Part shown: one piece after another, positions 3,054-6,320 of the stretch
Layout of the letters: the number at the start of each line of letters is the position of its first letter
How positions within the stretch are numbered: position 1 is the stretch's first letter
Source: a virus
DNA: 18,246 nucleotides
Virus genome (UHGV): UHGV-0188933
Direction: 5' to 3' (one strand)
Program-made: the position numbers and the translations under genes
The notes under the pieces: generated by a model
Database searches by the model: none
Seen by the model: only the letters and a program-made list of their open reading frames with translations
What the model was told of the DNA's origin: nothing

Positions 3054-3412
3054 ACGAATATCAGTTTGTGCTTCCATACCCGCCGTCGGTGAATACCTAC
3101 TGGCGAAGACGGGGAAGCCAATACTACATCAGCGATAAAGGCCAGAAATACCGAAAAGACGTTCAGCAAATCATCCGCCAACTTAAGTTAGACATTTTCA
3201 CCAAATCACGACTCCGCATCAAAGTCATCGCAGACGTTCCAGACTCCCGCCGCCGCGACCTCGACAACATCCTGAAAGGTTTACTCGACTCCCTTATCCA
3301 CGCCGGATTTGCGGAAGACGACGAGCAATTCGATGACATTCGCGTAATTCGTGGCGTGAAAGTACCAGGCGGACGGCTTGGAATAAAAATCACCGAACTG
3401 GAGAACGTATGA
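3050..3412 (+). CDS. rusA: Holliday junction resolvase RusA
   Basis: 120 aa; LPYPPSVNTYW...DSRRRDLDNILKGLLDSL...GGRLGIKITELE follows the RusA pattern (PWPPSNN, RRRDLDN, GGRLELTITE). ATGA overlap with upstream gene. Confidence 0.85.
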   Translation: MNEYQFVLPYPPSVNTYWRRRGSQYYISDKGQKYRKDVQQIIRQLKLDIFTKSRLRIKVIADVPDSRRRDLDNILKGLLDSLIHAGFAEDDEQFDDIRVIRGVKVPGGRLGIKITELENV

Positions 3413-3603
3413 ACGCCACAATTCAAACGATACCAGAGCTTCTTATCCAGACACGAGGCAATCAGACCGAAGTGGCAAGGATGCTTTCCTGCGCAAGAGG
3501 AACAGTGCTTAAGTACAACCGAGACAGCAAAGGCGAGCGTCACGTAATAGTTAACGGCGTCCTGATGGTCAAACAGGGCAAGAGGGGAAGACGATGGGCA
3601 TAA
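3409..3603 (+). CDS. ninH: NinH-like protein
   Basis: 64 aa; TIPELLIQTRGNQTEVARMLSCARGTVLKYNRDSKGERHVIVNGVLMV resembles lambda NinH (TIPDMLVEAYGNQTEVARRLKCSRGTVRKY). Position between rusA and Q is as in lambdoid nin regions. Confidence 0.75.
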   Translation: MNATIQTIPELLIQTRGNQTEVARMLSCARGTVLKYNRDSKGERHVIVNGVLMVKQGKRGRRWA

Positions 3604-4082
3604 GAGAACTAAACCTCACCAAAGAGCAGCACGAGTGGCTGAATGGCTGGCTTGAACTGTGGGGGGCATGGGTTTATTCAGGTCGTCTTGAAAAGCGCAT
3701 GAGCAGCGTAATAGCGAAGTTCATGGAGAGCGTAGAGCCGGGAAGAGTTATGACAAGGCCAATGTGCAATGATGATGATGGAATGTTGATTTCTCAGGTC
3801 GTCGATTCCGTCATGTACATTGACAAGAAAGCCTTTGGCATCCTCCTCAGCTACTACGCCCATGGATCTTCCAAGCACGCCATTGCATCTTACTATCATC
3901 GCGTCGCAAGACCTCGCAAGATGTTATGCCGGGGCGGAGGGCGCATTCAAAAACCATCGCTCGCAACCTGTCGTCGGGAAGTTGACGAAATCCTCAATGC
4001 CTCGTTGTTTATGATTTACCCGGTTCTGGATAGTGCGTTTAAAAACCGGAAACGTGTAGAGAAAATTAAACATGTAGCATAG
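3594..4082 (+). CDS. late-gene antiterminator, Q-like
   Basis: 162-aa Cys-containing protein in the Q position (after ninH, before the lysis cassette). Call rests on synteny and size more than on recognised motifs. Confidence 0.55.
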   Translation: MGIRELNLTKEQHEWLNGWLELWGAWVYSGRLEKRMSSVIAKFMESVEPGRVMTRPMCNDDDGMLISQVVDSVMYIDKKAFGILLSYYAHGSSKHAIASYYHRVARPRKMLCRGGGRIQKPSLATCRREVDEILNASLFMIYPVLDSAFKNRKRVEKIKHVA

Positions 4083-4126
4083 AACGTGTTGACATCATTG
4101 AGCAAATGAGCAACACTATTCGCATA

Positions 4127-4168
4127 AGCTGCCGTTAGTGACTCTTAAGTTGCAACGGTGGCTTTTTT
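4127..4168 (+). terminator. hairpin plus T-run downstream of Q (possible short late-leader terminator)
   Basis: 10-bp stem (agctgccgtt / aacggtggct, two G-U pairs) with 17-nt loop, followed by TTTTTTATTT. A TTGACA hexamer lies at 4089-4094. Confidence 0.4.
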
Positions 4169-4172
4169 ATTT

Positions 4173-4247
4173 GGGTCAGTCGTATAAAGGTCATTACGGA
4201 AGGCTGTTAACCTTCTTATCGTGGTTCGAGTCCACGCTATCCCGCCA
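4173..4247 (+). tRNA. tRNA-Asn-like element (anticodon GUU), possibly degenerate
   Basis: Perfect T-arm cgtgg-TTCGAGT-ccacg, perfect anticodon arm gaagg-CTGTTAA-ccttc (U33, anticodon GTT, A37), U8, A14, GG in D-loop, 3' CCA at 4245-4247. Acceptor stem has two mismatches (gggtcag vs ctatccc) and D-stem one. Confidence 0.45.
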
Positions 4248-4283
4248 AACATGCTGGTTTAGCTCCAATGGTAGAGGTGGTAA

Positions 4284-4709
4284 ATGCCGAGCAAAGATTA
4301 CTATCTTAATCGAAGGGCTAGGCTTGCTAAGACCGTGGAAAAGTTGGGTGGTCGTTGCGCGAGTTGCGGATCCGAATATTCGCTTCAGTTTGACCACATA
4401 GACCCTTCCACCAAATCAGCAAATGTAAGCGAGATGCACTATCACTCAGATTAGGTGTTTTATGCTGAGGTTGAAAAGTGCCAACTACTATGTTCTGCAT
4501 GCCACATTCAGAAAACCAAATTTGACCTTAGCTACTTAGTAGCTGGTGAGCTGAATGGTATGAGCAAGCTAACAATGGACAGCGTCCAGTTCATCAGAGA
4601 AAACTACATTCCACGACATAAGGTTTATGGAGCCAGAGGGCTAGGGAGAATGTTTGGTGTAACACATCAAACAGTGCTTTCAGCCTTAAATGGCGAAAGC
4701 TGGAAATAA
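4284..4709 (+). pseudogene. HNH endonuclease interrupted by in-frame TAG at 4452-4454
   Basis: Frame from ATG 4284 reads ...CASCGSEYSLQFDHIDPSTKSANVSEMHYHSD*VFYAEVEKCQLLCSACHIQKT...; the C-x2-C, DH, N and C-x2-CH elements of one HNH motif are split by the stop. Good SD (gaggtgg) upstream. Confidence 0.7.
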
Positions 4710-5126
4710 GCTGCGCGTCAGAGGTTCGATTCCTTTGCCCGCTCCAGTAAAAGCTTTCCAGTCTGCGATGATGGGTTCCCCGGAGTGACTGGAAAGCGAC
4801 CTGGTTTTGAATGGGCGCTGCTTTTTGCAAAATTGCTGTGTGAAAATACTGACCTTTGGGTTCAGCGCTCATCCAAAAGCATCACGTGAATTCACCAACG
4901 CTCATGTACTCTCCAGGAAACAATAAGTGATTCTGAAAAGTTCCGGTTAGATATTGCCCCGGTCACCGGATGATTTTATCTTTTGGTTCGTGGTGAATCC
5001 CCCTATGCGGCGGGGCGTCCAGTCAAACTTTTTTGTCCAGGTTTGTTTGCGCGGAACTAGTCGGCTGGGGCTGTTCCACCGGGAGGCACCCGGCGCCACC
5101 TCCTTGACGGTATTGTTATTTTTCAT

Positions 5127-5153
5127 GCCTGTTCGTCCGAGCAGGCTTTTTTT
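5127..5153 (+). terminator. intrinsic terminator about 410 bp upstream of holin (tR'-like)
   Basis: 8-bp stem (gcctgttc / gagcaggc with one G-U), 4-nt loop, then TTTTTTT. Confidence 0.6.
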
Positions 5154-5563
5154 GCCCGCATTATCTTCATTGAAAACTGGCAACTCAGAGAATCATCCAA
5201 ATTAAAAAAGCAGCAACGAGAGCGATTACTAATACATTCTTCGCTTTTTCTCTTCTGCTGGCCTTCACAAAAGGATTCACTATCCGGCAGTGGCTACACA
5301 CAAGTGATTCTGGGTTAATTAACTTTCCGCAGTAGGGGCAGGGCTTGATAATCATTGGTACTAATTAAGTTGTGAGAACGTAGTCTCATTTAACCACATT
5401 TATCGAGTTGTTTTACTAATGGTCTAGTTATTTCAGACATATTCATCAATTTCAGGCTCACGGGAATCATCCGCTACGTGCTTTGTTGATAAATCCAGCC
5501 CGTGAAGCCTGACCCTTTTCAAACACACACACAGCACCATCCGGAAAATCGGAGGTGAGGCCT

Positions 5564-5887
5564 ATGAAAATGCCATACAAACAAGATTTCATCGCTGCGC
5601 TACTTGCCGCCAAGGAGCAGGGTATTGGTGCAATGCTGGCTTTTATCATGGCGTATCTGCGTGGTCGCTATAACGGCGGCGCGGTAACAAAAACGCTAAT
5701 TGATGCGCTGATGTGCGCGATGATTGCCTGGTTCGTTCGTGACCTTCTGGACTTTATCGGCCTGAGCAGCAACCTCGCCTACATAGCCAGCGTCTTTATT
5801 GGATACATCGGCACCGATTCGATCGGCAATCTTATTAAAAAACTTGCAGCAAAAAAGGCGGGAGTTGACGATGCAAACCAGTCCTGA
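5564..5887 (+). CDS. S: class I holin, lambda S family, with dual-start motif
   Basis: [64 protein letters not shown]... is close to lambda S ([39 protein letters not shown]...). ATG-AAA-ATG with SD ggagg upstream. An in-frame GTG at 5555 gives the longer ORF in the track. Confidence 0.9.
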
Positions 5888-6320
5888 CGGAATTGCTCTG
5901 ATAAAAAAATTTGAAGGTTGTCGGCTGACTGCTTACCCCGACCCCGGAACGGGAGATGCGCCGTGGACCATCGGCTATGGCTGGACCCATCCGGTTGACG
6001 GAAAGCCAGTAAAGCGCGGTATGACTATCGACCAGCAAACCGCTGACAGGCTTCTGAAAACAGGGCTTGTTGGTTATGAGAATGACGTGCTGAAAGTTGT
6101 CAGGGTGAAGCTGACACAAGGCCAGTTCGACGCACTGGTGTCGTTCGCTTACAACGTTGGGTCGCGTGCTCTTTCCACATCTACACTGCTGAAAAAGCTG
6201 AATGCTGGCGATATAAAAGGCGCGGCAGATGAATTTCTGCGCTGGAATAAATCAGGCGGAAAGGTGATGCCGGGGCTCACGAATCGCCGCAAGGCAGAGC
6301 GAGCTCTGTTCCTGTCATGA
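5871..6320 (+). CDS. endolysin, T4-lysozyme-like (GH24) muramidase
   Basis: Protein from ATG 5871: [40 protein letters not shown]... with E-x8-D-x5-T catalytic spacing; ends [11 protein letters not shown] like P22 gp19-type lysozymes. Start overlaps holin end. Confidence 0.85.

Follow-up and report, generated by a model that had tools for sequence, protein, structure and literature searches.

A probable STnc100/PasD-family small-RNA gene in the lysis-operon leader of a phage-21-like prophage

RNAs of lambdoid late regions and the layout of the locus

Lambdoid phages carry late-transcription modules composed of the promoter pR', a Q-binding element and the terminator tR'; examples are the lambda 6S RNA, the late promoters of phages 21 and 82, and StxS. 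For the Q protein of phage 21 (21Q), the TGAGCA direct repeats are experimentally defined sites that are bound by two 21Q protomers (PMC6606751). Small RNAs of the STnc100 and PasD types share structure, probably ancestry, and a prophage context near the Q and holin genes (Zhu, Shabalina and Storz, bioRxiv 10.64898/2026.05.13.724894). PasD1 and PasD2 of enteropathogenic E. coli were confirmed by Northern blotting and RIL-seq as Hfq-dependent small RNAs (PMC8550237). In Stx2 phages, a copy of STnc100 is located 75 nt downstream of stx2 (PMC12370729), and binding of RpoD was reported at the STnc100 copies of Salmonella LT2 (PMC10794520).

The DNA analyzed here (the window) is a stretch of 18,246 nucleotides from the virus genome UHGV-0188933. 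Positions 4954-5153, referred to below as the flagged unit, had been likened in an initial annotation to the PR'-tR' layout of lambda, in which the lysis genes are reached by Q antitermination. In our reading they probably constitute an independent gene for a small RNA of the STnc100/PasD family, situated inside the untranslated lysis-operon leader of a phage-21-like prophage, and the layout of the unit would be a candidate promoter followed by a structured RNA of ~165 nt and a terminator (Table 1). Because both the STnc100/PasD family and the Q/pR'/tR' switch of phage 21 are already known, this is an ordinary finding; the window copy is a divergent, unannotated member of STnc100. For annotation it means that, besides the Q/pR'/tR' switch of phage 21, the late region of the prophage contains an unannotated small-RNA gene of the STnc100 type, located downstream of this switch.

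Table 1. Coordinates of the late-region features of the window, from the Q gene to the holin gene
Feature	Position	Strand	Basis or remarks
Q antiterminator gene, phage 21 type	3594..4082	+	162/162 aa identity with phage 21 Q; Pfam Phage_antitermQ 8.8e-25; PHROG 943 4.9e-90
pR'21 late promoter	4089..4124	+	Identity to annotated features of phage 21 OL657228
tR' of pR'21, ends the short constitutive late-promoter transcript	4126..4173	+	Annotated terminator in phage 21
tRNA-Asn (GTT)	4173..4247	+	ARAGORN; Rfam tRNA 51 bits; same position in phage 21
tRNA-Thr 5' fragment (acceptor and D arm), truncated by HNH insertion	4253..4276	+	Phage 21 identity stops at 4276, then divergence
HNH endonuclease gene, broken by TAG at 4452-4454	4284..4712	+	Both halves match PHROG HNH families
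Candidate sigma-70 promoter	4954..4982	+	-35 TTGCCC, 17-bp spacer, -10 TATCTT; predicted start ~4989-4991
STnc100-family small RNA (extent of Rfam match)	4965..5157	+	RF02076, 71.7 bits versus gathering score 47, E = 7e-14, model 1-206 of 206
Structured core	4990..5099	+	Minimum-energy fold, RNAalifold, pairing in relatives
Intrinsic terminator, small-RNA 3' end	5127..5153	+	Hairpin and T7; within Rfam model match; recurs in relatives
Candidate 56-aa zinc-ribbon and transmembrane ORF (ATG)	5185..5355	-	Four homologous protein clusters
Conserved non-coding block directly 5' of holin	5449..5563	+	74-98% identity in HK225, mEp237, Gifsy-2, phage Louie and many Klebsiella phages
Lambda-S-type holin/antiholin, MKM dual start	5564..5887	+	Pfam Phage_holin_3_1 8.5e-30; PHROG 126 2.1e-39

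The spacing proposed earlier for the end of the leader is accurate: the holin start at 5564 lies 411 nt past the U-tract of the terminator, against ~410 bp claimed. The same interval was said to be free of ORFs, which holds for the plus strand, where no ORF of at least 40 aa is present in 5206-5554, but not for the minus strand, where a 56-aa ATG ORF occupies 5185-5355. Two of the four protein clusters homologous to this ORF are named DUF2116 family Zn-ribbon protein by NCBI, and its PHROG matches are weak; in the near-identical locus of E. coli KL53 it is without RefSeq annotation. The HNH gene is intact in KL53, with TCG at the codon that is TAG in the window. ARAGORN found no tRNA at 4253-4276, the span of the tRNA-Thr fragment. 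The conserved block at 5449-5563 is also found upstream of STnc100 copies in other contigs.

Family match, terminator and folded core

A scan of the window against all of Rfam returned two matches only, the tRNA-Asn and STnc100 (RF02076). The first ~25 nt of the latter match (4965-4990) are poorly aligned, and thus the window copy appears to be without the Salmonella-type 5' extension. The small-RNA transcript likely spans ~4989-5153 and is ~165 nt long, with a 5' end that we infer. The earlier suggestion of a short leader RNA encoded in this region was therefore correct in substance, as 4965-5157 matches the STnc100 model and would yield a non-coding transcript of ~165 nt. The strong terminator that had been placed at 5127-5153 was confirmed as an 8-pair hairpin with T7: GCCTGTTCG-TCC-GAGCAGGC at 5127-5146 forms the pairs, of which five are G-C, around a loop of 4 nt, and T7 occupies 5147-5153. 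Folding of the whole RNA gives the same hairpin.

The flagged unit lies between Q21 and an S-type holin in a lambdoid late region. In phage HK639 a match to RF02076 is found in the equivalent spot, between Q and the lysis genes, and many IMG/VR contigs are alike. The exact variant seen in the window is seldom met: of 5426 complete E. coli genomes, 10 carry it, and the annotation of these ten genomes has no feature at the small-RNA locus. At the gathering threshold, no STnc100 match was found in DLP12 of E. coli K-12 and in phage 434.

The minimum-energy fold of the window RNA contains the helices P1, P2, P4 and P5. In P1, 4990-4995 pairs with 5094-5099; P2 is formed by ~4998-5016, and a variable hairpin P3 is located between 5019-5024 and P4. 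P4 extends over 5053-5077 with the loop GGCTGG at 5063-5068, and P5 is CCGGG-AGGCA-CCCGG at 5079-5093. As a whole, the RNA has a folding energy that is ordinary for its composition and does not set it apart from shuffled sequence (z = -1.13), so the structural claim rests on covariation, among sequences that are related to each other.

Relatives were collected from viral contigs that contain an exact copy of the invariant hairpin CCACCGGGAGGCACCCGG; this gave at least 119 DNA stretches with 64-67 unique cores. P5 was the search key for the relatives, and hence no judgement is made on covariation in P5; scans with 12-mer motifs at 3 mismatches gave mostly noise, and only the P5 result is used. 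All cores follow a common plan, namely the closing helix P1, P2 after the motif GGUGAAUCC, a short segment, a variable hairpin, GCGG, P4, the invariant P5, and the 3' strand of P1. Among the matches listed, P1 is paired at 6/6 positions in 61 of 64 unique cores with 21 different combinations of strand sequences, such as GUGGUG/CACCAC, GCGGUG/CACCGC, CAGAUG/CAUCUG, ACGGUG/CGCCGU and GUGAUG/CAUCAC. For 27 diverse cores among these matches, RNAalifold yielded 21 pairs, nine of which have changed on both sides; these nine belong to P1, P2 and the basal part of P4.

In addition, the segment CCAGUC that follows P2 in the window (5019-5024) is complementary to the P4 loop GGCUGG (5063-5068), which would produce a pseudoknot. 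In the relatives the same partners are CUGGUG/CACCAG, AAGCCA/UGGCUU, AGUUAA/UUAACU, UGCGGC/GCCGCA, AAUGGCG/CGCCAUU or CAGCA/UGCUG, and more than ten duplex types occur. Among the matches listed, the mean longest run of pairs was 4.98 for own partners versus 4.02 for swapped ones (Mann-Whitney p = 5.6e-8) under a constrained definition of P4; with free choice of P4 the test was noisy, giving 4.94 versus 4.64 and then 4.64 versus 4.35 (p = 0.03). As the sequences are related, such pairing statistics overstate their independence, and the variety of duplexes is the real argument. The relatives support a conserved pseudoknotted fold of the predicted core, with compensatory changes in P1, P2 and P4.

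These comparisons also bear on the possibility that the region codes for a protein, the candidate being an 83-aa ORF that starts with TTG and occupies 4954-5205 of the plus strand. Several phage records annotate a 'hypothetical protein' over homologous sequence. However, apart from its TTG start, this ORF crosses the terminator hairpin, the core lengths of the relatives (96-140 nt) differ by non-multiples of three, the substitutions are paired across helices and not concentrated at third codon positions, and the region passes a curated RNA model. We therefore regard a coding function as barely credible.

The phage 21 late switch and the small-RNA promoter

The Q-dependent switch of phage 21 is preserved in the window. 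Positions 4080-4276 are 99% identical to the phage 21 genome, and the alignment from TTGACA at 4089 through the tR' hairpin is the same as in phage 21 save for one T fewer in the U-tract. Over this span the phage 21 record labels the -35 of pR', the Q-binding element, the -10, the start, a sigma-dependent pause element, the terminator, tRNA-Asn and tRNA-Thr. In the window, TTGACA at 4089-4094 corresponds to the -35 of pR'21 and 4112-4117 to its annotated -10; the Q-binding element ATTGAGCAAATGAGCA occupies 4097-4112, and the start falls near 4124. The element ATTGAGCAAATGAGCA holds two TGAGCA repeats, as in PMC6606751, and a search for it across the window with up to 3 mismatches gave the single occurrence at 4097-4112. 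The tR' hairpin (4126-4164) has a folding energy of -20.2 kcal/mol (z = -4.5) and is followed by T6. Since the Q protein is identical to 21Q, and phage 21 has the same pR', Q-binding element and tR', the genuine Q-dependent module of the window is, by this identity, the well-studied 4089-4173, ~870 bases upstream of the flagged unit. The initial annotation had listed TTGACA at 4089 with a hairpin behind it as a second candidate; both are present, and together they make up the pR' of phage 21, Q-binding element included, and its tR'. With the cognate module at 4089-4173, the flagged unit is not expected to be the site of Q action.

The promoter elements proposed for the flagged unit were located by direct reading of the sequence: TTGCCC at 4954-4959, a 17-bp spacer at 4960-4976, and TATCTT at 4977-4982. 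Their match to consensus, given before as 3/6 and 4/6, was counted here as 4/6 and 4/6, which makes 8/12 and is slightly better. The call nevertheless deserves the description as weak that it had received, as a pair of 8/12 is by itself at chance level; by the same criteria, four sites are found on the plus strand and eight on the minus strand of 3500-6000, and a stricter promoter scan (at least 9/12) does not list the site at 4954-4982. Within 4080-5560, the interval for which promoter prediction and folding had been recommended as a check, the 8/12 site is the sole one of its kind on the plus strand. The significance of TTGCCC/TATCTT comes from the comparison with relatives and not from the hexamers themselves.

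For this comparison, the 80 nt upstream of P1 in the matches listed were grouped into 30 sequence families, and the best sigma-70 site in each was considered if its score was at least 7. Among these matches, the -10 ends 6-13 nt before GGUG in nine of the 30 upstream families; shuffled sequences gave 2.1 families on average and never more than 7 (0/500 reach nine). The promoters in this register include TTGAAA-17-TAAATT, TTGACT-18-TAGATT, TTGACC-18-TAATCT and TTGAAT-18-TAATAT, and TATCTT of the window, which ends 9 nt before GGUG, is in the register of the strong promoters of its relatives. Moreover, the transcribed sequence of the window is joined to three types of promoters (that shared by the window and contig L071, that of L056, and that of L040), with the breakpoint at 4990/4991, and in three complete E. 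coli genomes the homology to the window begins at 4990/4991, which is the predicted start. Such swapping of promoters exactly at the predicted transcription start is a detail perhaps worth following up. Taken as a prediction from sequence comparison, 4954-4982 is very probably the small-RNA promoter, weak in the window copy.

The genomic contexts of the relatives indicate how such promoters are related to Q. Among the matches listed, the nearest upstream ORF of at least 100 aa is a Q gene in roughly 23-26 of 61 ORFs scanned, and the upstream Q genes belong to PF03589 (13), PF06530 (6), PF06323 (4) and DUF1133 (3), families that partly overlap; the nearest downstream ORFs of at least 100 aa are mainly lysozymes (Phage_lysozyme 11) and holins (Phage_holin_8 7, Phage_holin_3_1 6). 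With Q genes of varied types upstream and lysis genes downstream, the STnc100 family lives in late leaders generally and not beside one type of Q. In contig L022, four copies of the core are present within 1.9 kb, with spacers that are mutually unrelated. Every copy has a strong promoter of its own (TTGACG or TTGAAA with TATATT, TAAATT or TTACAT), the -10 of which ends 8-9 nt before GGUG, and copies 1, 2 and 4 have their own terminators directly after the core. Among the matches listed, a terminator is located at most 130 nt from the core in 51 of 84 unique contexts.

Some copies of the core are without a terminator, or are located directly before tRNA genes or ORFs. Copies of this kind suggest that the core may have a role beyond base-pairing by a seed region.

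The reading of 4954-5153 as a Q-dependent late promoter with a short terminated leader, equivalent to pR', 6S RNA and tR' of lambda, so that Q would open the lysis genes at this point, draws on a layout that is indeed lambda-like: a promoter-like site, an RNA of ~165 nt, a strong terminator, ~410 nt, and an S-type holin. Some promoters of the relatives (TTGAAA-17-TAAATT) also resemble the hexamers of lambda pR'. However, the cognate pR'21 with the exact Q-binding element is at 4089-4124, and this element occurs nowhere else in the window; the spacer 4960-4976 has no TGAGCA. Between Q and the unit, which are 870 nt apart, there are tR', a tRNA gene and an HNH gene. Contig L071, the closest relative with the promoter type of the window among the matches listed, has an upstream Q that is 67% identical to Q of phage 82; a short terminator of its own separates this Q from the small-RNA promoter, and in L022 and L056 a tR'-like terminator likewise parts the two. 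One and the same promoter stands behind Q genes of different Pfam families in L035 and L056 (DUF1133/PF06530 versus PF06323), and relatives have the same promoter behind Q genes of PF06323 and PF06576/PF06530. Finally, L022 has four promoter-RNA units in a row. The equivalents of the proposed Q-specific promoter in the relatives thus follow a tR'-like terminator and are unchanged behind different Q families, so the small-RNA promoters appear to be independent of Q rather than Q-specific late promoters. The Q-dependent reading of the flagged unit is, on these comparisons, already contradicted by the sequence, and we consider it very improbable. As to a -10-like pause element, no hexamer of the initial transcript GUUCGUGGUGAAUCC combines A in its second with T in its sixth position, but sequence alone is no basis for a judgement on pausing. 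The Q of L071 had also suggested an orphan pR'82 module; this candidate was rejected in view of the separate terminator after Q and of a promoter that does not track the Q family.

Proposed mechanism and comparison with known systems

Overall, a small-RNA gene is the explanation that we consider likely for the flagged unit, and it would operate as follows. In the lysogen, pR'21 would fire and its transcripts would stop at tR', and the weak sigma-70 promoter TTGCCC/TATCTT would start the small RNA near 4990. This RNA would fold so that P1 closes a core with P2, the variable P3, P4 and the invariant P5, and the segment after P2 would form the pseudoknot with the P4 loop. The core would be followed by an A/U-rich single-stranded linker and by the terminator hairpin with U7 at 5127-5153, the product being a discrete RNA of ~165 nt. 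Its 3' end, consisting of linker, hairpin and U-tail, would have the form expected for binding of Hfq, and members of STnc100/PasD are known as Hfq-bound trans-acting RNAs. Hfq binding and such a function of the window RNA are an extrapolation from these other members.

For lytic growth we rely on the established knowledge of 21Q, the parts being identical. Q21 would load at 4097-4112 on the polymerase paused at pR'21 (4089-4124), and the modified polymerase would pass tR', the tRNA/HNH segment and the small-RNA terminator, leading to the expression of S, R and Rz. The earlier proposal that Q modification is required for an upstream polymerase to pass 5127-5153 and to reach the holin should thus hold by analogy, with a site of Q action different from that claimed. 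The small-RNA terminator would have two roles, as it would set the 3' end of the RNA and shield the holin from the small-RNA promoter and from unmodified read-through. On the way from pR'21 to the lysis genes, 5127-5153 is the second barrier. More generally, a strong terminator in a late leader can mark where a small-RNA gene ends and need not be a tR' site, and each such terminator is an extra barrier that is passed only by Q-modified polymerase.

Another possibility is that the core acts in cis within the leader, either as a put-like antitermination RNA or as a switch that senses a ligand or a protein and controls read-through of its own terminator. The elaborate pseudoknotted multi-helix fold with invariant junction nucleotides and its location directly after the promoter are consistent with this, as are the copies without a terminator that run into tRNA genes or ORFs, and a class-2 variant with a different P2, which precedes early genes of the RecE type, the position of putL in HK022 and HK639. 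Nevertheless, the STnc100 model, searched with E up to 10, has no match at the put sites of HK022 and HK639, and HK022 contains neither the P5 nor the P2 motif within 2 mismatches. Most copies have a strong terminator close after the core (51 of 84 among the matches listed), and family members accumulate as discrete small RNAs (PMC8550237); both are the opposite of antitermination. In addition, no alternative pairing of core with terminator was seen when the sequences of the window and L007 were inspected, and constitutive read-through into the holin would kill the lysogen. A cis-acting role is, in our estimation, improbable.

Two specific candidates of this kind were considered and rejected. 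A put-like antiterminator was suggested by a loose likeness of class 2 to putL of HK639 and HK022 (GCGCGAC..AGUAAA, GCGGG...CGGCA), but the all-Rfam scan of the put regions, with E up to 10, was without STnc100. A riboswitch-like expression platform was sought by eye as alternative pairing of core and terminator in the window and in L007-type copies, which gave only 4 base pairs.

With the small-RNA gene as the preferred reading, the question of what its functional part is may have an answer that we put forward as a doubtful but conceivable one: what functions in the STnc100/PasD family may be the pseudoknotted core of ~110 nt, and not the variable linker and the terminator, with Hfq-dependent base-pairing being secondary in the copies that bear terminators. 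If so, the core would be a modular promoter-proximal RNA that binds a host or phage protein or a ligand, for instance to act as a decoy, as a sensor or as an element that binds polymerase. It would be deployed singly, in tandem up to four, fused to tRNA genes (with release by RNase P), or, as class 2, at the head of early operons of the RecE type. What may be new for a known family is the covariation-supported pseudoknot, the conserved promoter register with the -10 just before P1, and the arrays of cores with tRNA genes.

Among the described systems, STnc100 (RF02076) is the closest. The window RNA shares with it the core of P1, P2, P4 and P5, the same type of terminator, and the location between Q and the lysis genes of lambdoid prophages; unlike the Salmonella and Stx-phage type, it is without the 5' extension of ~30 nt, its promoter abuts P1, and P3 and the linker differ. 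PasD1 and PasD2 are likewise encoded by prophages near the Q and holin genes, and a structure and ancestry shared with STnc100 were reported (PMC8550237; bioRxiv 10.64898/2026.05.13.724894). The region of phage 434 located 5' of the esterase gene, which is the position described for PasD, has a P1/P2-like 5' motif but no P5, and it scores below the Rfam threshold. Thus the window RNA is of the STnc100 type and not of the PasD type, PasD being taken here by its described position.

The pR'/tR' modules resemble the flagged unit in that a short RNA is made constitutively and stops, ahead of the lysis genes, at a terminator that Q-modified polymerase passes. Unlike these modules, the flagged unit has no Q-binding element and does not lie next to Q, and among the relatives its promoters show no correspondence to the Q family. 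The put RNAs of HK022 and HK639 (PMC9378689) are also structured RNAs located directly downstream of a lambdoid promoter, and the class-2 relatives occupy a putL-like position. However, put is a two-stem RNA of ~70 nt (PMC9378689), whereas the core of the window is a pseudoknotted multi-helix structure of ~110 nt that is followed by a predicted terminator, and the two are without similarity at the level of the family model.

Tandem cores and tRNA genes

Among the matches listed, single viral contigs can carry three or four cores of the STnc100 type in tandem (see the table), and cores are interspersed with tRNA genes in L082, L058, L037 and L021 (L-numbers denote DNA stretches of relatives). 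In L037 and L082 the tRNA starts just 9-10 nt past P1, the closing helix of the core, and from this spacing it is to be expected that RNase P processing of the adjoining tRNA would free the core.

In the window, the tRNA-Thr gene of phage 21 stops at 4276, just past its D arm, where an HNH endonuclease gene (4284-4712) truncates it, and the apparent 3' end of another tRNA lies on the far side of the insertion. A split or intron-containing tRNA around the HNH gene was rejected, since the two flanking fragments form no common acceptor stem. The HNH gene itself is, judging from an in-frame TAG at 4452-4454 where the near-identical locus of E. coli KL53 has TCG, a pseudogene in the window.

Coordinates of the features described in the window and in related contigs
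Feature	Location	Strand	Remark
STnc100-type core array	L022 1140-2977
STnc100-type core array	L045 3093-3739
STnc100-type core array	L058 3380-5175
STnc100-type core array	L082 340-2066
STnc100-type core array	L013 491-3499
5' fragment of phage 21 tRNA-Thr gene	window 4253-4276		ends after D arm
Apparent 3' end of another tRNA	window 4714-4747		T arm and GCCCGCTCCA; 3' of HNH gene
56-aa ORF	window 5185-5355	-	MIIKPCPYCGKLINPESLVCSHCRIV..., then hydrophobic tail
Non-coding block, ~115 nt	window 5449-5563		immediately 5' of holin
Class 2 core	L004 3972-4110	-
Class 2 core	L043 6932-7064	-
Class 2 core	L072 1801-1931	-
Class 2 core	L110 1786-1925	+

Sequences flanking the small RNA

Positions 4723-4887 of the window are 92.8% identical to HK639 44493-44658, which has the tRNA region of that phage on one side and its STnc100 region on the other. 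This segment contains an 11-bp inverted repeat, GCTTTCCAGTC...GACTGGAAAGC, at about 4752-4797, and has no match to any Rfam family. The 56-aa ORF is convergent with the STnc100 small RNA and falls within a stretch that the initial annotation had called ORF-free. Its homologues form four protein clusters, two of which bear the NCBI name DUF2116 Zn-ribbon protein; in the KL53 locus it is not called by RefSeq.

The block preceding the holin shows 74-98% conservation in HK225, mEp237, Gifsy-2, phage Louie, and many Klebsiella phages; in L008, L011, L061, L064, L111, and L119, the same block is located instead 5' of an STnc100 copy. One of its reading frames terminates with ...GIIRYVLC followed by two stop codons, so the block may in part be what is left of the 3' end of a gene.

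The 3' strand of P1 together with the start of the linker (5094-5110) reads CGCCACCUCCUUGA. The sequence CACCUCCUU, the anti-Shine-Dalgarno sequence of 16S rRNA, is complementary to GGAGGUG in the holin ribosome-binding site (5551-5557). Among the matches listed, CACCUCCUU is found only in the window, L040 and L056 variants, and the complementarity may be a coincidence.

Further segments in phages 434 and HK639

Phage 434 (L125, OL657226) carries a P1/P2-like motif, CATGGTGAATCCTCCTTGGAGGGGC, and after it an annotated terminator, at about 3395-3580. The motif lies directly 5' of the SASA esterase gene, the location described for PasD, a prophage small RNA related to STnc100; a 'putative membrane protein' CDS is annotated across it. 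The region contains no P5 motif and has no Rfam match at the gathering score.

Immediately 3' of Q in HK639 (L002), positions 2789-2861 match Rfam isrJ at 34.6 bits, below the threshold of 37, and overlap an annotated terminator (2839-2863). This arrangement suggests that the 'small RNAs' of the isrJ type may be leader transcripts that start at late promoters of another Q type and end at a terminator.

A second class of cores

In the class 2 variant, P1, the pseudoknot, P4 and P5 are unchanged, and P2 reads GCGGCUAAGCGCGCGC. Besides the tabulated cores, further ones occur in L033, L047, L066, L101, and L102 among the matches listed. No terminator was detected 3' of class 2 cores, and an Rfam scan at the gathering score reported STnc100 in none of the four class 2 contigs covered (L004, L033, L043, and L072). 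In seven contigs (L004, L043, L047, L066, L101, L102, and L110), the core is located 5' of small ORFs and then a large ORF, whose size agrees with the seven Exonuc_VIII (RecE-type) matches. This position is the one occupied in HK022 and HK639 by the antiterminator RNA site putL.
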